Notes under the pieces: generated by a model | Databases searched by the model: none | What the model saw: the letters and a program-made list of their open reading frames with translations, nothing else | Told to the model about the DNA's origin: nothing | Virus record (IMG/VR): IMGVR_UViG_3300025997_000012 | Coordinates: 1-58,639 of that record | DNA: 58,639 bases | From: a virus | Lineage: Duplodnaviria; Caudoviricetes | Reading direction: 5' to 3' (one strand) | Part shown: piece by piece, positions 20,049 through 58,637 of the stretch | Layout: every line of letters begins with the position of its first letter | Position numbering within the stretch: the stretch's first letter is position 1 | Made by a program: the position numbers and the translations under genes

Positions 20049-20112
20049 TCCTTTTGTTTATTTGTTAAATTTATTATAACTATTAAAACATAACATGTAA
20101 ATGGTTATTTTC
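20049..20112 (-). promoter_or_regulatory. Early promoter cassette
   Basis: Reverse complement gives TTTACA-spacer-TATAAT...AACAAATAAACAAAAGGA. Confidence 0.8.
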
Positions 20113-21068: not shown

Positions 21069-21135
21069 CCTTTTTGTTTATTTGCTAATTTTATTATAAC
21101 TAATAAAACATAATATGTAAACAATAATTATTTTC
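21069..21135 (-). promoter_or_regulatory. Early promoter cassette
   Basis: Reverse complement GTTTACATATTATGTTTTATTAGTTATAAT. Confidence 0.85.
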
Positions 21136-21667: not shown

Positions 21668-21741
21668 TGTACCCAGCGCAGGACTCGAACCCGCTGTCAT
21701 GACTTCGTAAACCCTTGGTTTATCCATTAACCGAACTGGTT
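21668..21741 (-). tRNA. Degenerate tRNA-Arg(ACG)-like
   Basis: Good T arm GCGGG-TTCGAGT-CCTGC and D arm; poorly paired anticodon stem; no CCA. Confidence 0.45.
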
Positions 21742-22288
21742 AATTATATTTTTATTGTAACATTAAAATTATGTTTTTATGATCAAAACTGTGTTGATTA
21801 TCCAATAATTTTCATCTCTTCTACTAATTACATCTATAATGTCATCTGTTTTTACATTGATTCTAAATGGTCTAATTTTTTTCATCTAAATCACGATAAT
21901 ACAAAAATTCACATAAATGATATTTACTCAACGAAATTATTGATTTTTGTTAATCAATAATATATAAATGTCTATTTTTAATTTTTTCTAAAATATGTTT
22001 TGCCTTTATTGTAACTCCTACCAAATTAAAGTAAATTTTTATTAAAAATATGATTAAATTTGTTCAAAATATCTGTTTCGGCCATAACAAATATCATAAA
22101 ATTGTTTACTATGATATATTATACTAAAAATTAAAACAAATGTAAATACTAATTTAACAGTATTTTTCTTCTTATTCGTTTACTGACATACAATCAAACA
22201 CATGTAATAAGTAACACTTTGGTTATATGATGTCTAATGTATAGTACACACAACTATTATTACATGACGTGAACGTACTTTTGAGAAT

Positions 22289-22363
22289 TGGTGCCTCGTG
22301 TTGGAGTCGAACCAACGACCTGTCGATTATGAGTCGATTGCTCTACCGTTAAGCTAACAAGGC
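22289..22363 (-). tRNA. tRNA-CAT, Ile2 (lysidine)-like
   Basis: GCCTTGT/ACGAGGC acceptor, TCGA-CTCATAA-TCGA, CCA end; resembles bacterial Ile2. Confidence 0.85.
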
Positions 22364-22364
22364 G

Positions 22365-22438
22365 TGGACCTGGCATCCGGAATCGAACTGGAATCTAAGG
22401 ATTTGCAATCCATTATACTACCGTTATACTATACCAGT
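22365..22438 (-). tRNA. tRNA-Cys(GCA)
   Basis: Loop TT-GCA-AA, U discriminator, CCA. Confidence 0.8.
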
Positions 22439-22450
22439 TTAAAATATTTT

Positions 22451-22506
22451 CCTTATTTATTAAATCTTTTATAACAATAAAACATAATATGTAAAGAATT
22501 ATTTTT
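22451..22506 (-). promoter_or_regulatory. Early promoter cassette driving tRNAs
   Basis: Reverse complement TTTACATATTATGTTTTATTGTTATAAA. Confidence 0.7.
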
Positions 22507-22525
22507 ATTATTTACATTTAAAAAT

Positions 22526-22608
22526 TGGTACTAGTATATGAACTCGAACTATCAATACCAAAGCGAGGGATTCTAAGTCCCTCGTGTATACCATTCCACC
22601 ACACTAGT
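22526..22608 (-). tRNA. tRNA-Leu(TAG), weak T stem
   Basis: ACTAGTG/TACTAGT acceptor, AGGGA-CTTAGAA-TCCCT, long variable region, CCA. Confidence 0.7.
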
Positions 22609-22620
22609 ATTATAATTAAG

Positions 22621-23040
22621 AGGGAGTTTGTTAATAAGGCATATCTCCCAACTTGAACTAAATCAGCCTCAACAGACTACGCTACTAAACGAGTCTGTGC
22701 AAAAGTATTATCATTTGCGTTTATCTTTAAAATGTATCTTATTTTACGTGCTTCAATCTTTACACGACTCTCAGGTGCACCGTACATTACCCTGTCGAAA
22801 CCAGTACATCCCCATCAAGAGCACACTTATGTGTAAAAATTATACAAACAGTTCACATAATAAATTAATAACTACTCCTGCTCCACATGTATTGGCTAGA
22901 TACAACATGTTTCCAAACTTATGAGGTCTGTTGTAGTCACTATCTGTTGTATATAATTACCCTATAATGTTATAAATGTGCTTTTGGTGGAGATGGGGAG
23001 AGTCGAACACCCGTCCAGACCAACTTTATACACCATCAAC
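22621..23040 (-). ncRNA. ssrA: Circularly permuted (two-piece) tmRNA; tag ANDNTFAQTRLVA*
   Basis: Acceptor piece ...GGACGGGTGTTCGACTCTCCCCATCTCCACCA (CCA at 22987-22985) precedes coding piece GGGGATGTACTGGTTTCGACAGGG (from 22813); G3-U70 pair; tag frame 22718-22677. Confidence 0.9.
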
Positions 23041-23755
23041 GAATTTTATAATTCTTTTAATATTGTTTAACATCTTTTGGCAAATAAGTTAAAATATTCA
23101 TCACTGAAATAACATAGAGATATAGTAATGTTGTCATAAAATATTCTGCATTAAATAACCCATATATTGCATAATATGGTCCAAGTAAAAATACCATATG
23201 TAACTATTACCGATGGCATTAATACTAACCAACATTTTAGGATTAAAAAACAATAGCTATTGTTTTACATGTAAGCCGTTAGTAATATAAAAAATATTAA
23301 TGTTATTAACATGTATTCAAATGCTGATTCAGTGATAATAACATAAATCAACTTTAATGTTTTTGGTTTCATTAATAAGTCTTTAAGTTCATTGATTCGT
23401 CTTTCACAATTATTAATTTATTCAGTGCTTCCTTTGTTAATATAATCATAAACTTTTTCTTCAGTGATTGATTTATATTCAACATTAGTGATTGTTTCTA
23501 CATGATAAACTTTATCATAGTGGTCTTATTTAGCTCCTAGATTTTCACTTTTAATATCTACAATAAAGTACTTATTATCAACTTTAACAAATGCACTTCA
23601 TCCATCACTATAATAGTCTTGACAGCAAGGTAAATATTAATCACTAACCTCTTTAAAATATGGTACAATATCTGATATAGTTTTTAATTCTACAATTTTA
23701 CTCATTTTATATTACTATTTAATTTACATTAATTTCAACAATTTATTCATTAAAT

Positions 23756-23831
23756 GAGGTAACCGAATGGATTTGAACCAAGTCTTGAGTGATTTTAGGT
23801 CACTTACCTCTACCAATTAGGTAAGATGGCA
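23756..23831 (-). pseudogene. Degenerate tRNA-like sequence (loop CCTAAAA)
   Basis: D arm, AGTGA/TCACT anticodon stem and GGTTCAAATCC present; acceptor stem unpaired. Confidence 0.5.
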
Positions 23832-23870
23832 TTATTTTTAAATATTCTTTTTAAAAACACTTAAAACTAA

Positions 23871-23944
23871 TGGTGGGTTGTAAGGGAATCGAACCCTTAT
23901 AGACCGGTTAAAAGCCGGATATTCTACCGTTGAATTAACAACCC
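23871..23944 (-). tRNA. tRNA-Lys(TTT)
   Basis: GGGTTGT/ACAACCC, CT-TTT-AA loop, CCA. Confidence 0.9.
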
Positions 23945-23951
23945 GAAAGTT

Positions 23952-24028
23952 TGGTGGATCGCTTGGGAGTCGAACCCAAAACCTACGGGTTAAAAGCCCG
24001 GTGCTCTATCCAATTGAGCTAGCATTCC
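23952..24028 (-). tRNA. tRNA-Lys(TTT)
   Basis: CGGG-CTTTTAA-CCCG, GGTTCGACTCC, CCA. Confidence 0.85.
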
Positions 24029-24085
24029 ATATATTAAATTGTGGGGATTTTTTACCAGCAAACATCTTTCGTTTCATTTATATTT

Positions 24086-24150
24086 CCTTTTTTGTTTATT
24101 TGTTAAATTTATTATAACTAATAAAACATAATATGTAAACAATTATTTTC
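24086..24150 (-). promoter_or_regulatory. Early promoter cassette inside tRNA cluster
   Basis: Reverse complement GAAAATAATTGTTTACATATTATGTTTTATTAGTTATAATAAATTTAACAAATAAACAAAAAAGG. Confidence 0.85.
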
Positions 24151-24197
24151 ACAATTTTTCATTTTTAAATATTCTTTTTCATAAAAACACTTAAAAA

Positions 24198-24272
24198 TGG
24201 TAGTTCTGTCAAGAATCGAACTTGAATTTCACGATTATCAGTCGCGGGTAATAACCATTATACTACAGAACT
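24198..24272 (-). tRNA. tRNA-Ile(GAT)
   Basis: AGTTCTG/CAGAACT, CGCGA-CTGATAA-TCGTG, CCA. Confidence 0.9.
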
Positions 24273-24274
24273 AT

Positions 24275-24349
24275 TGGTGTCAACGGTTGGTAACGATCCA
24301 ACCTATCTGGTTCTTCAGACCCGTGCTAATTCATCTCAGCTACATTGAC
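24275..24349 (-). tRNA. tRNA-Phe(GAA), atypical T loop
   Basis: GTCAATG/CGTTGAC, CT-GAA-GA loop, T loop ATCGTTA, CCA. Confidence 0.8.
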
Positions 24350-24351
24350 AT

Positions 24352-24429
24352 TGGAGTGGGTTTAGGGGATTCGAACCTACGAATAACGGATTCAAAGTCC
24401 GCTGCGTTAAACCACTTCGCCACATCCCA
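24352..24429 (-). tRNA. tRNA-Gln(TTG), aberrant 3' arm
   Basis: Identical to the next copy through the T loop; 3' strand CCCCTAAACCCACTCCA pairs poorly. Confidence 0.6.
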
Positions 24430-24435
24430 TTATTT

Positions 24436-24512
24436 TGGCTGGGACGGAAGGATTCGAACCTACGAATAACGGATTCAAAGTCCGCTGCGTTAAACCACTT
24501 CGCCACATCCCA
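24436..24512 (-). tRNA. tRNA-Gln(TTG)
   Basis: TGGGATG/CGTCCCA, GCGGA-CTTTGAA-TCCGT, GCCA end. Confidence 0.9.
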
Positions 24513-24518
24513 TTAATT

Positions 24519-24593
24519 TGGTAGCGGTGGAGGGACTCGAACCCTCGTCCATTAGGTTATGAGCCTAATAGTCTGCCGCTGACGTACACCGCG
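24519..24593 (-). tRNA. tRNA-Met(CAT), initiator-like
   Basis: CGCGGTG/CACCGCT with unpaired C1-U72, TTAGG-CTCATAA-CCTAA, CCA. Confidence 0.85.
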
Positions 24594-24600
24594 TTAATTT

Positions 24601-24676
24601 TGGTGCCGAAAGTAGGACTTGAACCTACAACCTACTGATTACAAATCAGTTGCACTACCAGTTGTGCTATTTCGGC
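24601..24676 (-). tRNA. tRNA-Thr(TGT)
   Basis: GCCGAAA/TTTCGGC, ACTGA-TTTGTAA-TCAGT, CCA. Confidence 0.95.
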
Positions 24677-24746
24677 TTAAACAATTATTAAATTTACTAT
24701 ATTTAAAAATACTATTTAATGTTATTTTAATACTCTTAAATATAGT

Positions 24747-24814
24747 TGGCCAGAATGATAGGATTTGAACCTGCACCTTCCAAGGCGAGAGAACTACCAT
24801 TATCTTACATTCCG
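24747..24814 (-). pseudogene. tRNA-Pro(TGG) pseudogene with deletion in anticodon arm
   Basis: CGGAATG/CATTCTG acceptor and T arm intact; 3' strand of anticodon stem missing. Confidence 0.6.
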
Positions 24815-24825
24815 ATTATCAGTGT

Positions 24826-24899
24826 TGGTCTCTCTGGAAAGAATTGGACTTTCATTTTACGGTCCCAAACCGTATGCATTACCATTATACTACAGAGAG
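24826..24899 (-). tRNA. tRNA-Pro(TGG)
   Basis: CTCTCTG/CAGAGAG, TACGG-TTTGGGA-CCGTA, CCA; T loop TCCAATT is atypical. Confidence 0.8.
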
Positions 24900-51529: not shown

Positions 51530-52855
51530 ATGCAAAAAATTCAAGCTTTACTTGAAAGTTCTAAATATACACCATTATCTGAAGCAGATAACGTTTCAAT
51601 GACTATGATGTTAAAGAACACAGAAATTGAAAATGAACGTCTAATGAACGAAGGTACTTTGTCTGGCGATGTTGCTCAATTTACACCAATCTTAATGCCT
51701 ATGGTTCGTAGAGTATATCCTAACTTGATTGCAAATGAGTTACTTGGTGTACAGCCTATGTCTATGCCTACTGGTTTTATTTATGCAATGACTAACCAAT
51801 ATACTGGTACTGCTGATACGGGTTCAAATGCTAATTCAATCATAATCGAGATGTCACGTCCTACTGGTTTAGTTGCTGGTGGTACAATTACTGGTGATAC
51901 TTCTGGCGCAGTAGCTACTGTTGTTTATGTTGAAGGTGCTAAGCTTTTAGTTGAACTTACAGCTGGTATTTTAACAGCTGAGACAATTAATACTGGTGCA
52001 GAAACTATTACAGGTATCTTTACTAACGAAGCATCATTCTCAAGAATATTCAAGAATTACACTGGTTCTTATTCAACTGCGGAAGCAGAACAATTATCAC
52101 GTGATATGCGTGAAGTTGGTTTCAGTATTGCGAAGAAAACTGTTGAAGCACGTTCAAGAGCTTTAAAAGGTCAATATACTGTTGAAATGTATCAAGATTT
52201 GAAAAATCAACATGGCAAATTAGCTGATGAAGAAATCATGAGTATGATGTCCTATGAAATGCAAGCTGAATTAGATCGTGAAGTTGTTGATTTTGTTAAT
52301 GCTAATGCAACACAATTGCAAAATACTACAAGCTTTACACAAGCATCTGATAACACAGGGCGTTGGGAAATTGAAAAATTCCGTAGAGAATCTGTTCGTA
52401 TCTCTTCAGAAGCAAAACAAATCGGTCTAGATACCAAGCGTGGACAAGGTAACATTCTTGTTGTATCTCCTAAAGTTTCTACAATGTTAGAACAAGCGGG
52501 TACTTTCAAGGTTGCTGAACAAAAAGCAAATATCAATACACCAGTTTCTGGTGGTGTTGCAGGTACATTTGATGGTAAATATAAAGTTGTTATCGATCAA
52601 TATGCTACTTCTGATTATTGCACAGTAATGTATAAAGGTGTTGACAGACGTGATGCAATGGGCTTCTTCGCTCCATATGTTCCTATGTCATTCACTAAAG
52701 TAACAAACGCAGACTCTGGTCAACCAGCAGTTATCGCGAAAACTCGTTATGCATTGGATACAATTCCTGGTGTTAGTTCGCCTACGTCAAATGACCGTGC
52801 TGCTACTTATGCTCGTTCATTCGGTATCGACTTCACAAATACTGTTTTAGCTTAA
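51530..52855 (+). CDS. gp23: Major capsid protein gp23
   Basis: PMVRR..P.LIA....GVQPM..PTG, V.ARSRALK, QDLK..HG, FFAPYVP, KTRY. Confidence 0.97.
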   Translation: MQKIQALLESSKYTPLSEADNVSMTMMLKNTEIENERLMNEGTLSGDVAQFTPILMPMVRRVYPNLIANELLGVQPMSMPTGFIYAMTNQYTGTADTGSNANSIIIEMSRPTGLVAGGTITGDTSGAVATVVYVEGAKLLVELTAGILTAETINTGAETITGIFTNEASFSRIFKNYTGSYSTAEAEQLSRDMREVGFSIAKKTVEARSRALKGQYTVEMYQDLKNQHGKLADEEIMSMMSYEMQAELDREVVDFVNANATQLQNTTSFTQASDNTGRWEIEKFRRESVRISSEAKQIGLDTKRGQGNILVVSPKVSTMLEQAGTFKVAEQKANINTPVSGGVAGTFDGKYKVVIDQYATSDYCTVMYKGVDRRDAMGFFAPYVPMSFTKVTNADSGQPAVIAKTRYALDTIPGVSSPTSNDRAATYARSFGIDFTNTVLA

Positions 52856-52874
52856 TCTTAAAGATTAAAACTTT

Positions 52875-52902
52875 TATAAAACCCACTTATGTGGGTTTTA
52901 TA
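52875..52902. terminator. Bidirectional terminator between gp23 and thyA
   Basis: TATAAAACCCAC-TTAT-GTGGGTTTTATA perfect inverted repeat. Confidence 0.85.
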
Positions 52903-52908
52903 TTATAT

Positions 52909-53769
52909 TTAAACAGCCATTGTAGCTTTAATACTATCCATAGGACTATAATTTAATAACGTATAATCAATAGTCTTTGTCAATAATAATTCATCTAATG
53001 TATAAAAATTGGGCATCTGTAATGTAGGCAATTTACGTGGTGCTCTCATTAACTGCTCATTAACTTGACCAAAATGATTCTTATAAATGTGACAATCACC
53101 ACCTACCCAAATAAATTCACCTACGTGTAATCCTGTAATCTGCGCAAACATATGTGTTAATAATGAATAACTTGCTATATTAAATGGTACACCCAAAAAC
53201 ATATCAGCACTTCTTTGATACAACTGACAAGATAACTTGCCATTTACTACTCTGAATTGTGATAATACATGACATGGCGGTAATGCCATTTGATCAATTT
53301 GTAAAGGATTCCATGCACTTAATAAGATTCTTCTAGAATCTGGATTATCCATAATTTCATTCAATACATTAACAATTTGATCTACATTTTCATTGTTAAA
53401 TCTTCTCCATTGCCCACCATAAACAGGTCCTAATTCTTTCCTTTTGTTATTATTAATATATCCTAATTTTACACCTTGGGAATCAGCATTAGCAGTCCAA
53501 ATTGTTTTCTTATCAGCCAAATTTAATCTATCATCTTCATATAAAATTTCAGCTAATCGTCTTTCGTTTTCTGAACCTTCTAAAAACCATAATAATTCAC
53601 TAACAACAGACTTCCATGCTAATCGTTTAGTCGTCATAGCTGGAAAACCTTCTTGTAAATTAAAGCGCATACTATATCCAAAAATACTTCTAGTTCCTAC
53701 ACCTGTTCTATCATTTACATCTTCACCATAATTTAAAATGTATTTTAATGAATCTAAATACTGTTTCAC
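52909..53769 (-). CDS. thyA: Thymidylate synthase
   Basis: DRTGVGT, ELLWFL.G, LGPVYG.QWR, MALPPCH, YQRSAD.FLGVPFN. Confidence 0.98.
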   Translation of the reverse strand: MKQYLDSLKYILNYGEDVNDRTGVGTRSIFGYSMRFNLQEGFPAMTTKRLAWKSVVSELLWFLEGSENERRLAEILYEDDRLNLADKKTIWTANADSQGVKLGYINNNKRKELGPVYGGQWRRFNNENVDQIVNVLNEIMDNPDSRRILLSAWNPLQIDQMALPPCHVLSQFRVVNGKLSCQLYQRSADMFLGVPFNIASYSLLTHMFAQITGLHVGEFIWVGGDCHIYKNHFGQVNEQLMRAPRKLPTLQMPNFYTLDELLLTKTIDYTLLNYSPMDSIKATMAV

Positions 53770-54260
53770 AATTTTCTCCTCAATGTTTTATAAATATTTC
53801 CTGTCTGTGTTCGTCTGATATCCACACATTCGAAATTAACTAATTCACTCAAATGAATAAATTTATCACAATCAAAATCACCTTTAATCTTAGTAACTGA
53901 TATTTCTTCAATTATGTCTAAACATTGCATAATTAAATCACGTCCACCAATAATCCATACACTTATTGGCCCATCTAATTCTTTAATAATCGATTTAATA
54001 TCGCCTGATATCTTAATCGCTCCTTCAAATTTTTTATCAGCATTACTAACTACAATATTAATTCTATCCTTTAATGGTGCAGGAAAACACGGATCATTCC
54101 ACGTATTACTACCCATCACAACAATAGAATTAGTCGTACAATGCTGAAAATGTTTCATGTCTTCTTTATTTTTAGGCCATGGTAATGTTCCATCTTTACC
54201 AAGTCCACCTTTCTCATCTATCGCAAATATCGCTTTTATCATGTTATTTTTGATTCCCAA
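53766..54260 (-). CDS. folA: Dihydrofolate reductase
   Basis: GLGKDG.LPW....DM.HF, VVMG..TW, PL..RINIV, IIGG. Confidence 0.95.
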   Translation of the reverse strand: MGIKNNMIKAIFAIDEKGGLGKDGTLPWPKNKEDMKHFQHCTTNSIVVMGSNTWNDPCFPAPLKDRINIVVSNADKKFEGAIKISGDIKSIIKELDGPISVWIIGGRDLIMQCLDIIEEISVTKIKGDFDCDKFIHLSELVNFECVDIRRTQTGNIYKTLRRKL

Positions 54261-54575
54261 TTTTTGTAATTTTTATTTAAACATTATTTTTGCTTCTTTA
54301 GAATTAATAAAACCCTTCATTTTCTAGATGATTTAGAATATATAATACTTAATTTAATGTATCACACAATTCTTCTAAAAATGTTTCTATTGTTCATTCC
54401 GCAGATTTAGATGCATTTACAGAATTAATAAATTATAAAAATTCTCGATTAACTTCTCCGACTTCTTCATTAAATTTCAGTACATTCTTCCAACGTGGTA
54501 TATCCATTAATGTTGCACTTAATTCCTCAGTTTTCCATAATCAATAAAATCTTTCATAATTCTCCTTTTTGTATA

Positions 54576-55511
54576 TTATAAATCCAAACATATTAATCCC
54601 TTAAAATTTTTCGTGTCAATATGATAAAATTTATCCTGTATAAAATAATGTTGTATTTCTCGATTAACATAAAACTTTGGTTGATTTACATTTATATTTT
54701 TGTTCATTTGTTTAATAATCTGTGAAATTCTACCTTTACTTTTGTTAGTTAATTTACCAACTTTAGTCATATTATGATGTAATAAAAATAAATTAACTAT
54801 ATTATATTCATCTTTGTCCAAATACAATTTAGTCAAATATTCAATCACAAATGTATATTTTTTATAGTACCCAATATTTTTTGCAATGGACATTAAACGG
54901 TTTGAACTAGCTTTAGATAAGTCTTGTAAAGTACATTTATTAAAAACAATGAATTCTTTTATAAACATGTAGTCATTATTCGTGAATTTTATATCAATAT
55001 ATAATTCTTGTACATCTTTTGGAGCATTTAATATATGTTTTCTTTTCCTTCTATTATCACTTGTTTTACTTGAAAACATTGTATTAAAGATTAACTTATT
55101 ATAATAATCTTTTGGTAATTTCATAATACATACGAATTCAATTATGTTAGATACACATTTATAATACTCGTTTTTTGTCAATAAACCAGGTTTGTATTCA
55201 GTACGAACTTGTTCTAAATTTTTATCGTAATAAACATTATATCCTTTATTATTTTCTTTTTTGTCAGTGTCTTTGATTCTTGTATAGTCTTTAATTTTAG
55301 ATAAGATTTTTATTTTTTCTTGAACATAATTAAGACATTCGTAATAATTATCAAAAGTTTTATACTCTCGATATGTATAATATATATTCTTTTCTATTAG
55401 TCTTTTTGTTATTCCATTTTTGATTCCATCACGACTAAATCCAAAATAAAACATCTTTAAAGAATCAAATCTAACTAAATAACATCTATATTTCATTTTA
55501 TATCTCTCCAT
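54576..55511 (-). CDS. Hypothetical protein, GIY-YIG-like N-terminus and C-terminal HTH
   Basis: CYLVRF....FYFGFSR...R; MTKVGKLTNKSKGRISQII resembles a sigma region-4 HTH. Confidence 0.45.
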   Translation of the reverse strand: MERYKMKYRCYLVRFDSLKMFYFGFSRDGIKNGITKRLIEKNIYYTYREYKTFDNYYECLNYVQEKIKILSKIKDYTRIKDTDKKENNKGYNVYYDKNLEQVRTEYKPGLLTKNEYYKCVSNIIEFVCIMKLPKDYYNKLIFNTMFSSKTSDNRRKRKHILNAPKDVQELYIDIKFTNNDYMFIKEFIVFNKCTLQDLSKASSNRLMSIAKNIGYYKKYTFVIEYLTKLYLDKDEYNIVNLFLLHHNMTKVGKLTNKSKGRISQIIKQMNKNINVNQPKFYVNREIQHYFIQDKFYHIDTKNFKGLICLDL

Positions 55512-55575
55512 TTTAAATAATTATATCACAATTAAACATTTATGTAAATATGTTTATTATAAAAATACGAAATAA

Positions 55576-55583
55576 GCCGATAT
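55576..55583 (+). promoter_or_regulatory. sigma28 (FliA)-like -10 element GCCGATAT
   Basis: 7/8 match to GCCGATAA, 50 bp upstream of flagellin ATG; no canonical TAAA at 15-bp spacing. Confidence 0.55.
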
Positions 55584-55632
55584 ATTAATTGTAAACAGAA
55601 ACAAAATAAATTAATTAAAAGAGGATATAAAA

Positions 55633-56457
55633 ATGACATTATCTATTAACACAAATATCGGTTCAGTTATTGCTGGCAACCAATTGAATAAATTAAATAA
55701 TGAATATGGCTCATTACAGGAACAAGCAACAACTGGTAAAAAAATCAACAGAGCTGCAGATGATGCTGCAGGTATGGCAATCTTAATGGGAATGAAAAAA
55801 ACCTTCATGGGCAATGAATCAGCGATGAATAACATTACACGTGGTAAAGATTTGTTAGCAGTACAAGAAGAAGCAATGACTACTATAAACACAATGATGG
55901 AACGTTTAAAAGAACTAGCGGTAACATCGGCCGATGGTACAATGTCAGCCGCTGATAGAACAAAAAATAACACTGAAGCACAATCATTAATGGGTGAAAT
56001 GGATCGTATTGCAAAAGCAACTACATATAACGGAATACAATTATTAGATGGTTCTGTGACCTCTGTAACCTTACAGGTAGGTTCTGGAAATACTGTTAAT
56101 GATCAGATTGCTGTTACAAACTACGATGCTACATTAGCCAGTATGAACATTAATGGTGGTGATATATCAACTGTAGTAGGTGCACAAACATTCTTGGATA
56201 ATTTAGATATTGATAACACAACATTAACATCTGGTTTGTCATCTATTGGGTCTACAACTAATCGATTAGATTATGCGAATGAAAACTTAGTTAACATGAA
56301 CAAATCATTAGAATCATCAATGTCAAGTATCGAAGATGCTGATATGGCGAAAGTTTCAGCACAATTAGCTAAAAATGAAACATTACAGCAATTAGGTTAT
56401 TCAATGTTAGCGAAATCTAATCAACAACCACGTTCTTATTTGAGTCTTTTCGGCTAA
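55633..56457 (+). CDS. fliC: Flagellin (minimal D0/D1 type)
   Basis: INTN, TGKKINRAADDAAGMAI, RLKELAV.SADGT, T.YNGIQLLDG, LQVG, IG...NRL, S.IEDADMA, SMLAKSNQ.P...LSL. Confidence 0.95.
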   Translation: MTLSINTNIGSVIAGNQLNKLNNEYGSLQEQATTGKKINRAADDAAGMAILMGMKKTFMGNESAMNNITRGKDLLAVQEEAMTTINTMMERLKELAVTSADGTMSAADRTKNNTEAQSLMGEMDRIAKATTYNGIQLLDGSVTSVTLQVGSGNTVNDQIAVTNYDATLASMNINGGDISTVVGAQTFLDNLDIDNTTLTSGLSSIGSTTNRLDYANENLVNMNKSLESSMSSIEDADMAKVSAQLAKNETLQQLGYSMLAKSNQQPRSYLSLFG

Positions 56458-56485
56458 AATTAGTCTAAAATACGAAAAAACAACT

Positions 56486-56534
56486 ATTTACATATTAGGT
56501 TTTATTAGTTATAATAAAATCTAACAAATAAAGG
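56486..56534 (+). promoter_or_regulatory. Early promoter cassette upstream of flaG-like gene
   Basis: TTTACA 56487-56492, 17 bp, TATAAT 56510-56515, AACAAATAAAGGA. Confidence 0.85.
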
Positions 56535-56543
56535 AATACTTAA

Positions 56544-56891
56544 ATGATTGAATCAATGAAAAATAATGATATTTCACGATTGTCCAATAGTATTCAGAAT
56601 GTGCAACCTGAAGCTTCAAAAGAGTTGCTGGCTAAAGAATTAAAAAAATCAGAAGGTTCTGAATTAAATATTAGTCTTGAAGCATATCAAAGATTAAAAG
56701 ATGATTGGGCTGAAGATAAAACTAAAACATCCTTAAAATTAGAGAAAGATGATTATGGTGATATTATATATCGCTTTTATGACAAGAAAACAGATGAATT
56801 AATTAAAGAAGTTCCATCAGAAGATGCTCGTAATAATTCTAAAAGAATTTCTGACTATCTTGACAAAATTACTAAAGATTTATTTAATTAA
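56544..56891 (+). CDS. flaG: FlaG-family flagellar protein
   Basis: L....D..G.II....DK.T.ELIKEVPSE......RI pattern; directly after flagellin as in bacterial loci. Confidence 0.75.
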   Translation: MIESMKNNDISRLSNSIQNVQPEASKELLAKELKKSEGSELNISLEAYQRLKDDWAEDKTKTSLKLEKDDYGDIIYRFYDKKTDELIKEVPSEDARNNSKRISDYLDKITKDLFN

Positions 56892-57191
56892 AGGAAAACA
56901 TGAAAAAATTAGTTTGTATGTCTTAACAACCTTTCTATTTTAGAACACTAAAAATGAAGTACGTGAAAGAATCGGCATTTGAAGTGGTTGTTCATGTTGT
57001 TCATGTTGTTTGAATACATCAAATACATAAACAACATATAATAAAATAATTGTAGTTGAATAAAACATGATTATTAAACTGGACGGTTTTTATACAATAA
57101 AAATAATGTCAGTGTTACTTACTGGTTTATAACATAACAAATTATAAGTCTTGTTGTACAAATTGACCCATTAAATAAGGAATTAAATAAA

Positions 57192-57599
57192 TTAAGATAA
57201 TTTCTTAATAGTAACGAATTTTTTCTGTTCTTGAATATATTCATCACTATTATTATAGAATGTATATCCAAAAACTCTTAATACATTATAAAATAATTTT
57301 CTTTTAATATAACCAACACCAGCCTCTTTTAACAGATCAATAAATAGTTGGTCTGATTCTTTTCTTGATAATAAATTAGTTGCATATAATGCGTCATGAA
57401 TTATACTTGGCCCAACATAATTACCATTCAATGGACAACCAACAATACTCCATGCAAATCTAGGAATAGTCGCTCCATCAGTTATAAATCCCTTTTTTAT
57501 GATTATGTCATAGTATTTATTTGTATATTGGAATTTCTTATAAATTTCATAATTATCTGAATTAATTCTTTTTAATATTGTTTCTGTTTTATAACTCAT
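57192..57599 (-). CDS. DUF1353-family protein
   Basis: GFITDGATIPR..W, IIHDALY, R.ESD.LF...L...GV, V.R.FG. Confidence 0.9.
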   Translation of the reverse strand: MSYKTETILKRINSDNYEIYKKFQYTNKYYDIIIKKGFITDGATIPRFAWSIVGCPLNGNYVGPSIIHDALYATNLLSRKESDQLFIDLLKEAGVGYIKRKLFYNVLRVFGYTFYNNSDEYIQEQKKFVTIKKLS

Positions 57600-57602
57600 A
57601 TT

Positions 57603-58637
57603 CTATATCCAATCTCTAAATATAGGAAACGAACCACCTGATTCAGGGATAATCATATCACGGTCCCAAGTTGCATGTATTCCGCCATGAGTTTCCGATG
57701 TTATTGCATATCTGAATTCGATTACGCCGGTTGTTAATATGGTTATTAAAAGTGATTGAGATACAAAACTATCGCGATAACTCTTAAAGATTACCTTAAC
57801 TAGGGTTTTAGGATATAAACTGGTGTCAAATGTATAAACTGGTGATACTAACGTTAAACGCTCAGTAATGCTTTTATATTCGAGAGACCACGCATCAAGC
57901 GTAATTTCTGCTGCTGATAATGTGAATGATGGTATTCTAAATTGAACTGTTGAATGGTCATTTCTGAATTCAAACAGCGTATTATCTGGAACTCCTGGCA
58001 AGCTTGTTAAATCTATACTCGAAACACTACCAAATCCTGTTGTTTGTGCACTAGGTAAATCAGTTAAATCATTATATGATATTTGTCCTTCTGTACTACC
58101 AGCAGTATGTGAGTGTACTGATGGTGCATAAGGATGTGTATGTCCTGTATCTGATTTGCCAGCTAAAGTTCCTGATAAATCAATAACATCACTCATAGGA
58201 TGTGTATGTCCTGTATCTGATTTGCCAGCTAAAGCTCCTGATAAATCAATAACATCACTCATAGGATGTGTATGTGTTGCATTAGCAAATGCAGTAGCAT
58301 GTTTACCATCTAACAAGTCAGCATTTAAACTAGTCACTAAAGCTGCACTTTGTACTGTAAAGGGTGCACCAGAAGTTGTTGTTGAGTTTAACACATTACC
58401 AGTAATATTACCTGTAGTATCATTATTACCTAATGTAGTAATATTACCATTGTTAATGATATTACCTAATGTATCAATGCTAGCATTATCATTTGATATA
58501 ATACCACCTGATGTAATATTACCTGTAGTATCATTATTACCTAATGTAGTAATATTACCATTGTTAATGATATTACCTAATGTATCAATGCTAGCATTAT
58601 CATTTGATATAATACCACCTGATGTAATATTACCTGT
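57603..58637 (-). CDS. Tail fibre protein, 3' part (continues beyond window)
   Basis: Frame open to window end; LNADLLDG.H, HTH/HSH motifs, GN-rich repeats. Confidence 0.8.
   Translation of the reverse strand, partial: TGNITSGGIISNDNASIDTLGNIINNGNITTLGNNDTTGNITSGGIISNDNASIDTLGNIINNGNITTLGNNDTTGNITGNVLNSTTTSGAPFTVQSAALVTSLNADLLDGKHATAFANATHTHPMSDVIDLSGALAGKSDTGHTHPMSDVIDLSGTLAGKSDTGHTHPYAPSVHSHTAGSTEGQISYNDLTDLPSAQTTGFGSVSSIDLTSLPGVPDNTLFEFRNDHSTVQFRIPSFTLSAAEITLDAWSLEYKSITERLTLVSPVYTFDTSLYPKTLVKVIFKSYRDSFVSQSLLITILTTGVIEFRYAITSETHGGIHATWDRDMIIPESGGSFPIFRDWI
58131..58275. repeat. 66-bp intragenic repeat (HTHPMSDVIDLSGxLAGKSDTG)
   Basis: AGGATGTGTATGT at 58131, 58197, 58263. Confidence 0.9.

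Follow-up and report, generated by a model that had tools for sequence, protein, structure and literature searches.

The window, meaning the whole stretch of 58,639 bases that was analysed, is an IMG/VR virus record from groundwater of an aquifer and was rated 29% complete by CheckV. It carries a flagellin gene and, directly behind it, a gene for a FlaG homologue (Table 1). The original prediction had described an intact flagellin of 274 amino acids with both conserved termini, almost no variable D2/D3 region and a ribosome-binding site ahead of the start codon, and each of these points was borne out. In Pfam searches, Flagellin_N (PF00669) matched residues 5-143 with an E-value of 3.4e-29 and 102.1 bits, compared with a gathering cut-off of 26.6 bits. 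The match spanned profile positions 1-139 of 139, and the six-frame search gave 104.4 bits. Flagellin_C (PF00700) matched residues 189-273 with an E-value of 2.9e-19 and 69.6 bits (gathering cut-off 23). Chance is not a concern at these E-values. Only about 45 residues separated the two domains, and D2 and D3 are therefore absent. Judged by its sequence, the protein appears to keep all that a filament subunit needs, namely both D0 termini and a complete D1, and has no outer domains.

Table 1. Features of the flagellin-flaG locus, with positions in the window.
Feature	Position	Strand	Remarks
Divergent 311-aa ORF (ORF311)	54576..55511	-	Possibly a degenerate GIY-YIG/HTH homing endonuclease
TTTACA-17-TATAAT promoter of ORF311	55548-55520	-	Same type as the flaG promoter
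AAAATACGAAA, first of two exact copies	55562..55572	+	Before the flagellin gene; second copy at 56467-56477, before flaG
GCCGATAT, candidate sigma-28/sigma-D type -10 box	55576..55583	+	50 nt before the flagellin ATG
Shine-Dalgarno sequence AGAGGA of the flagellin gene	55620..55625	+	Read from the sequence; 7 nt before the ATG
Phage flagellin gene	55633..56457	+	ORF with ATG start, 274 aa, no internal stop; identified by Pfam domains, fold and lineage
TTTACA-17-TATAAT promoter cassette before flaG	56487..56515	+	11/12 consensus matches
flaG, diverged FlaG homologue	56544..56891	+	115 aa; identified by Pfam FlaG (PF03646), relatives and profile match

An AlphaFold2 model of the flagellin was built from the alignment of the 27-sequence lineage described below. 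It reached a mean pLDDT of 78.5, with values above 90 in D1, and showed long helices and a small beta-hairpin. D0 had a low pLDDT in this monomer model; before assembly, the termini of flagellins are disordered. The Foldseek matches listed comprised minimal flagellins solved as filaments, with TMq values of 0.82-0.87 and E-values of 2e-15 to 1e-12 over 265-277 columns. They included the Leptospira core flagellin (9lrz) and the flagellins of Roseburia (9hpz), Kurthia (6t17), Shewanella (FlaA, 9oxj) and Caulobacter (FljK, 6xky). As modelled, the D0-D1 fold of the phage flagellin was indistinguishable from that of filament-forming minimal flagellins.

The product of flaG alone scored 21.2 bits on Pfam FlaG, under the cut-off of 23.8, and a word-based protein search returned only the query itself. 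An exhaustive phmmer search of 1.84 billion representatives yielded 20 proteins at E <= 0.001. Eighteen of them were aligned; the remaining two, both long and made of repeats (7,139 and 528 aa), were left out. All 18 aligned relatives matched Pfam FlaG at E <= 0.01, the best with 1.7e-8. The family profile matched the PDB entries 2hc5 (Bacillus subtilis YvyC, E 4e-5) and 6jsx (FlaG, E 3.7e-4). By these profile matches, the gene after the flagellin gene is a diverged but genuine flaG. It resembles FlaG of Campylobacter jejuni, Vibrio cholerae and Pseudomonas aeruginosa and YvyC of B. subtilis in its family and in its place directly after a flagellin gene. It differs from bacterial FlaG in being highly diverged (21.2 vs 23.8 bits), in lying behind a promoter cassette of which the phage has further copies and in not being followed by fliD or fliS. 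Genes for FliS, FliW, CsrA or a response regulator were not found in the window (~29% of the genome). When the HMM of the FlaG alignment was run against six-frame ORFs of 33 viral loci, one weak match was obtained in locus L013 (E 0.0018), beside a flagellin of 35% identity. Two matches to a degenerate FlaG pattern in viral contigs were chance matches and were rejected as FlaG.

Phage ownership of the locus

The flagellin had been predicted to be embedded among phage genes, and the genome setting agreed with this. The T4-type (gp23-type) major head protein (phrog_138, E 3.9e-97), the head protease and the scaffold were encoded 2.8-5.7 kb upstream of the flagellin gene, with the baseplate wedge protein further upstream. 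Besides phrog_138, this set gave matches to phrog_207 (E 3.5e-49), phrog_237 (E 1.5e-26) and phrog_219/24789. The prohead protease, scaffold and baseplate wedge were all present, which makes the carrier a T4-like (gp23-type) myovirus. An integrase was not found in the window (~29% of the genome). The carrier phage, about 29% of whose genome is held in the window, is large, virulent and T4-like. By reading of the translations, ORFs resembling td (thymidylate synthase) and frd (dihydrofolate reductase) were located between the head gene and the flagellin gene. On the 3' side, the flagellin-flaG module was followed by a DUF1353 fibre chaperone and then by a fibre protein with PTR repeats. The divergent ORF311 had no Pfam or PHROG match; its Atlas feature score of 0.85 to GIY-YIG clusters is a lead only. 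Among 50,697 phage records, the only relatives at the nucleotide level were six Vibrio phages of 191-196 kb, with 77% identity in the capsid module.

Contig continuity was examined in two DNA runs. In both, one contig of 14,326 nt covered positions 52000-58160 with 0 differences and joined the head gene, td, frd, ORF311, flagellin, flaG, chaperone and fibre. Of the listed DNA runs holding the stretch, 18/18 contained every sampled word of 54300-57700; all 18 are flagged as possible sources of the window and may belong to one campaign. Four RNA-library runs of another year (2020), which are not flagged as sources, held 47-76% of the sampled words. The identical flagellin protein is on record from 53 contigs. 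At 23.6%, GC3 of the flagellin gene was close to the values of 14 other window genes (12.9-21.2%). Its higher overall GC arose at the first and second codon positions, and the capsid gene showed the same pattern. The original prediction had named continuity of the contig as a point to be confirmed and a chimeric assembly with host DNA as the outcome that would speak against it. The first was established by the contigs bridging both flanks, and the second was not upheld in view of these contigs, the GC3 value and the presence in all 18 runs. Both the identity of the flagellin and its ownership by the phage are secure.

The flagellin lineage and its unusual residues

A search of proteins of 150-480 aa returned 26 further proteins that were 54-64% identical to the phage flagellin; the next-best protein outside this lineage had 41%. 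The best of the proteins of 481-2000 aa reached 45% over ~55% of the query. Lengths were nearly constant, with 26/27 lineage members having 273-274 aa, and the 27-protein alignment showed 53 invariant columns and a mean column identity of 66%. A phylogeny against bacterial flagellins had also been proposed. In the full-length tree of 137 rows, the 27 proteins, including the phage flagellin, formed a single clade with an SH-aLRT of 99, which places the protein in a monophyletic lineage. The D1-only tree, from which P0027 was omitted for its aberrant C-terminus, recovered the other 26 rows as one clade with a support of 98-100.

A pattern-seeded scan covered 185,579 bacterial and archaeal species, each represented by one genome, and lineage members were absent from the best 80 of its 488 relatives. 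The closest among these 80 had 37% identity at full length (a Bdellovibrionales MAG) and 39% in a partial match. The 50,697 deposited phage records contained nothing above 40% to the flagellin. The matches listed for the metagenome scan were distant flagellins, the best with 37% at full length, and a single-protein scan of viral contigs gave two relatives with 31%. IMG/VR held one other contig with a lineage member, L004 (17.9 kb, GC 35.8%), whose flagellin was 56% identical; a back-translated lineage motif recovered this contig and no further one. L004 also encodes the large and small terminase subunits, a polynucleotide kinase and a DNA-transfer protein. Besides the flagellin, no ORFs were common to L004 and the window, and the pairing of flagellin and FlaG was not kept in L004. 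Both genomic contexts seen, 2/27 members, are phage, and the lineage is known so far only from phage DNA. Its sequences suggest an old flagellin lineage.

The replacement of ERLSSG by EQATTG and the unusual SYLSLFG end, both noticed in the original prediction, are real and are held across the lineage. EQATTGK occupied residues 30-36, giving Q-A-T-T-G-K at 31-36. The near-invariant R-L-S-S-G-L at these positions and the L-L type C-terminus, which are hallmarks of flagellins and not defining features, were absent; DDAAG at 43-47 was retained. A penultimate F (F273; ...SLFG end) was found in 22/27 lineage proteins, in 6/6 alphaproteobacterial rows and in 0/104 other rows. At nearly invariant sites, R31Q, L32A, S33T, L36K, A68I, S73D, R93K, A187F, A194D and V269Y were fixed in the lineage. 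Residue 32 is L in 103 of the 104 rows that belong neither to the lineage nor to the alphaproteobacterial set. Of these substitutions, L32A, A68I, S73D, A187F and A194D could change or impair the way the protein assembles together with host subunits. In length and fold, the phage flagellin is like Caulobacter FljK (6xky), Shewanella FlaA and FlaB (9oxj, 9oxk) and the Kurthia flagellin (6t17), which have ~270-280 aa and gave TMq values of 0.82-0.86 at full length. It is unlike the minimal bacterial flagellins in its sequence, with 25-33% identity to PDB chains and <=41% to proteins of similar length outside the lineage, and in the lineage substitutions at R31, L32, S33, L36, A68, S73, A187 and A194.

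Variation within the lineage was highest at residues 151-180 and 196-210 and lowest at 1-15, 31-45 and 226-240. Both flagellin termini had low entropy, and the variable stretch 151-180 covered the beta-hairpin and loop region of the AlphaFold2 model. The pattern looks like that of a subunit with buried termini and an exposed middle.

Six alphaproteobacterial flagellins, hand-picked from 80 loci, joined the lineage in the full-length tree with an SH-aLRT of 96. The join was flagged as long branches meeting in the D1-only tree, which leaves Alphaproteobacteria no more than a candidate donor. D1 identity was 21% to the six alphaproteobacterial rows vs 33% to the other rows; for D0 it was 43% vs 37%. 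The phage has a permuted tmRNA gene (ARAGORN; Rfam RF04321, 74.1 bits). This form of the gene occurs in Alphaproteobacteria, a few Betaproteobacteria and cyanobacteria. The permuted tmRNA and the ...LF end hint, at about even chances, at an alphaproteobacterial host.

Promoters and RNA-library contigs

With <= 3 mismatches allowed, a 29-nt cassette had five copies in the window, where 0 were expected, and the promoter before flaG was one of them. A second motif, TATAAATA, which we take to be the T4 late-promoter motif, was located 36-71 nt before four plus-strand genes of the tail-to-head module, including those of the scaffold and the major head protein. Neither the 29-nt cassette nor TATAAATA was present upstream of the flagellin gene. 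The candidate sigma-28 type box GCCGATAT was found there. Its pattern GCCGATAW had a single occurrence in the window vs 1.17 expected, which is chance-level, and it is the position that counts, not the presence. By our own arithmetic, a single GCCGATAW has a chance of ~0.001 of lying in the 100 nt upstream and on the correct strand. The nearest TAAA was 12 nt upstream of GCCGATAT, a spacer ~3 nt shorter than in the consensus; the sigma-28 promoter class has a spacer of roughly 15 nt. No box of this type was found upstream of the L004 flagellin gene. That gene has a short GC hairpin ahead of its ribosome-binding site. The element AAAATACGAAA has weak significance, since with one mismatch it gave 4 matches vs 6.5 expected. 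Downstream of flaG, positions 56892-57100 folded no better than shuffled sequences (z -1.12).

Metatranscriptome contigs at 55609-57084 (X19) and 55604-56897 (X20) spanned the flagellin gene and flaG with 0 differences. They show that both genes are present in RNA libraries and are no proof of transcription, strand or level. The contig ends hint, though weakly, that a start may lie near 55604-55609. Adaptor-like letters flanked the X19 contig at 55609 and 57084, which hints at fragment ends and is no proof of a transcript end. The stretch 54664-55551, comprising ORF311 and the spacer, had a depth of 0-3 in X19 and X20 and was evenly covered in the DNA runs; the uncovered part carries no weight. 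Contig depths were 48.9 and 23.9 for the flagellin piece and 89 and 53.5 for the capsid piece, values that are unfit for ranking genes.

Proposed role of the flagellin and FlaG during infection

The phage has its own complete flagellin and a FlaG, and the swimming filament of the infected cell is therefore probably disturbed or taken over by it. The original prediction had offered a range of functions, from co-polymerisation or poisoning of the filament to exclusion of competitors, prevention of re-adsorption, titration of FliS or FliW-CsrA and altered recognition; the present data narrow this range and leave several of these functions as candidates. Our preferred reading, which we hold tentatively and regard as a little short of an even bet, is that the two genes form a flagellar module of a virulent T4-like phage, whose flagellin would be exported and assembled into the host filament while FlaG would set the flow. 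We infer that the flagellar type III export apparatus of the host secretes the phage flagellin during infection and that the subunits are added at the growing end of the host filament, after phage shutdown of host gene expression. The benefit would be that phage-supplied subunits, the only bulk component of the filament, keep or re-make a working filament. Phage FlaG, made from the recurring cassette, would by analogy with bacterial FlaG compete with chaperone-flagellin complexes at the FlhA gate. It would thereby throttle the export gate and set the amount of flagellin leaving the cell. In polar flagellates, FlaG is described as limiting filament length by competing with FliS-flagellin complexes for FlhA, a function known from C. 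jejuni only (PMC11536152).

Export and assembly were favoured because of the conservation over the whole length, the filament-type fold, the surface-like variation and a partner gene with no known function other than at the flagellin export gate. As far as sequences can tell, full-length conservation in a long-lived lineage on phage DNA, together with the adjacent FlaG, speaks for a subunit that is exported and assembled rather than for a decoy confined to the cytoplasm. Several points speak against the preferred reading, however. FlaG is a negative regulator, and the pair could equally shut flagellin export down. No FliS-like chaperone gene was found in the window (~29% of the genome), the second phage contig has not kept the pairing, and L32A, A194D, A68I, A187F and S73D are fixed at near-invariant sites.

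A more elaborate form of the preferred reading is possible but rather unlikely. It takes flagellin as an auxiliary motility gene of virulent T4-like phages, and the lineage as one that is found in phages only and has long evolved in their genomes. Early FlaG would shut the gate to host complexes, and flagellin from the sigma-28-type promoter would then build a filament of the phage type. A host promoter of this type would confine the flagellin to cells with a finished hook-basal body, and the infected cell would swim on phage-made parts. What speaks against the sigma-28 element of this proposal is that the box is a single 8-mer, that its spacer is short and that the L004 gene lacks such a box upstream.

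That the module switches the flagellum off, with the flagellin staying in the cytoplasm as a decoy, is unlikely, though less so than the other alternatives. FlaG would block FlhA, and the unexported phage flagellin would soak up FliS, or FliW where present; the phage would benefit from a halt of costly export and from a re-tuned post-transcriptional control. FlaG is indeed reported to antagonise flagellin delivery (PMC11536152). In the phage it is driven by a strong, recurrent promoter cassette, the window is without a FliS of its own, and the substitutions at near-invariant sites could give an assembly-poor subunit in which the C-terminal chaperone-binding region is kept. A decoy requires the chaperone-binding part only, however, and the whole of D0-D1 including the N-terminal half is conserved over 27 proteins of constant length. 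The variable residues 151-180 form the hairpin and loop region, as expected of a surface exposed on a filament, and neither a FliW nor a CsrA gene was found in the window.

Remodelling of a receptor is more doubtful still as the main role. Exported phage flagellin would alter the filament surface, and other phages that compete by binding flagella, or new virions of the same phage, could then no longer adsorb to the infected or lysed cell. The variable segments of the lineage are in the probable surface region, and tail-fibre genes adjoin the flagellin-flaG module. Flagellar filaments grow only at the distal tip, however, and old host subunits would stay exposed throughout the lytic cycle; nothing in the window marks the phage as flagellotropic. 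For the prophage FRphi of Enterobacter, which swaps the host flagellin, exclusion of flagellotropic phages was proposed and, by that report, could not be shown (PMC13418256). Receptor remodelling is a possible benefit of the same export mechanism, limited by growth at the tip only. In an aquifer, immune recognition makes little sense as a driving force.

A non-flagellar use, with the helical bundle serving as a virion fibre or decoration or in another role inside the phage, is very improbable. The gene is indeed placed between the head module and the tail-fibre genes, but its product is a full-length flagellin that stands by itself and has an export regulator as its partner, and the gene is without the late motif that precedes four plus-strand tail-to-head genes. 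A recent passenger or assembly artefact without function is hardly credible. The window is indeed a fragment from a metagenome, and each of the 18 DNA runs bears the flag of a possible source. Against such a reading, contigs bridge both sides with 0 differences, GC3 is near that of the phage, the lineage is deep and shows 53 invariant columns, the searches described above gave no close donor among bacteria, a second phage contig (L004) has a member, and the stretch recurs in 2020 RNA libraries not flagged as sources.

The closest described system is FRphi, a prophage that encodes a flagellin, FliC_P, together with TldR; the phage flagellin was shown to replace the host flagellin in the filament, and the authors present it as the first known prophage-encoded flagellin (PMC13418256). 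As there described, FRphi resembles the present phage in combining a phage-borne flagellin with a partner gene directed against the host's supply of flagellin. The partner is the RNA-guided transcription repressor TldR in FRphi, whereas here it is FlaG, known as an antagonist at the export gate. The FRphi flagellin has large outer domains D2-D4 and the phage flagellin here has none. FRphi is temperate; the present phage has a T4-type structural module and no integrase in the window (~29% of the genome). Neither TldR nor a guide RNA was found beside the flagellin gene, where Pfam and PHROG searches gave ORF311 without a family, FlaG, DUF1353 and the PTR-repeat fibre as flanking ORFs.

Virulent phages keep host-function genes that sustain the infected cell, for example psbA of cyanophages. 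Under the preferred reading, the flagellin would be like psbA in that the phage supplies a host component of fast turnover after host expression has stopped. It is unlike psbA in being a structural subunit of an organelle and not a metabolic enzyme, and in coming with a negative regulator.

Literature on flagellin in virulent or T4-like phages was searched, and only the TldR papers and one annotation listing were found. The listing concerns the Nitrosospira 'phage roc1', with a genome of 338.7 kb, for which two FlaA flagellins and FlaG are given alongside FliI, FliJ, a cytochrome bc1 complex and glycolysis genes, and which is discussed among temperate phage genomes (bioRxiv 10.64898/2026.05.02.722434). 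By its annotation, roc1 would share a flagellin and FlaG with the present phage. Functional accounts of phage flagellin in the literature concern temperate FRphi and other tldR prophages only. To date, a phage flagellin has been shown to work in a temperate phage alone, and there it is the lysogen that gains. If the preferred reading is true, lytic phages too manipulate the motility of the cell that they infect, which would bear on the movement of infected cells and virus dispersal in groundwater and on the arms race over flagella as phage receptors. The lineage also bears on how far near-invariant flagellin sites can drift with assembly retained, and it is a ready natural set of variants for the rules of co-assembly. 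Other flagellin lineages, unrelated to the present one, were found in IMG/VR on records of 141,935 and 300,878 bases, which have terminal repeats and are rated 100% complete.

Sequences flanking the module and promoter cassette

The spacers of the module, consisting of the flagellin gene and flaG, contained several short sequence elements (table). The 11-mer AAAATACGAAA was located 61–71 nt 5′ of the flagellin ATG and 67–77 nt 5′ of the flaG ATG. A third exact copy was not present anywhere in the window, and the statistical weight of the pair is weak. A search for the promoter cassette at ≤ 3 mismatches detected five copies in the window, where chance predicts 0. In the DNA runs, the word depth of the copy upstream of flaG was elevated, which is expected of a sequence repeated across the genome. 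In the spacer 3′ of flaG, approximately 31 nt were found on very short, very deep contigs of the DNA runs. Their depths were ~1958 and ~1104, whereas the phage contig reached ~70 and ~47; the stretch is therefore common to something far more abundant in the samples.

Features in the window
Feature	Position (nt)	Strand	Remarks
11-mer AAAATACGAAA, two exact copies	55562–55572, 56467–56477		One upstream of each module gene
Promoter cassette TTTACA-17-TATAAT (29 nt), five copies	117–145, 20073–20101, 21093–21121, 24111–24139, 56487–56515		Last copy upstream of flaG
Stretch in spacer 3′ of flaG	56958–56988		~31 nt
ORF311	54576–55511	−	Beside the flagellin gene
Tail-fibre ORF	57603–58637	−	Continues past window end; tandem repeats, Pfam PTR
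Permuted (two-piece) tmRNA gene	22586–23077	−	Phage-encoded; ARAGORN and Rfam
tRNA cluster	21669–24899		12–13 tRNA genes
tRNA-Met gene	4285		Outside the cluster

ORF311, encoding 311 amino acids divergently from the flagellin gene, had no match in Pfam and PHROG. The Atlas feature search gave a weak pointer (0.85) to phage homing endonucleases with GIY-YIG and HTH domains. If ORF311 is truly a mobile endonuclease, transfer of the module between phages could be aided.

Flagellins on other viral contigs

Flagellins of other lineages, 30–35% identical to that of the window, were encoded by the IMG/VR records L005 and L007. These comprised 141,935 and 300,878 bases, respectively, with direct terminal repeats and a completeness rating of 100%. 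In the tree, these flagellins clustered with six other viral-contig flagellins. The IMG/VR contig L013 (9,065 bases) held the same ORFs at both ends and is possibly circular. At positions 1–1277 of this contig, a flagellin with 35% identity to that of the window was directly preceded by a weak FlaG-like ORF (E = 0.0018 with the profile of the FlaG alignment A2).

Tail-fibre ORF, tmRNA and tRNA genes

The tandem repeats of the tail-fibre ORF were affiliated with Pfam PTR (E = 4.7e-14), and the Logan contigs ended within this repeat region. A single T/C difference was present at position 58169: the window and run X1 agreed with each other, and run X4 and the RNA libraries X19 and X20 deviated from them. 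ARAGORN flagged the tmRNA gene as permuted and predicted a tag peptide; Rfam tmRNA_permuted (RF04321) scored 74.1 bits. The gene was located within the tRNA cluster, and an additional tRNA-Met gene was present elsewhere in the window.
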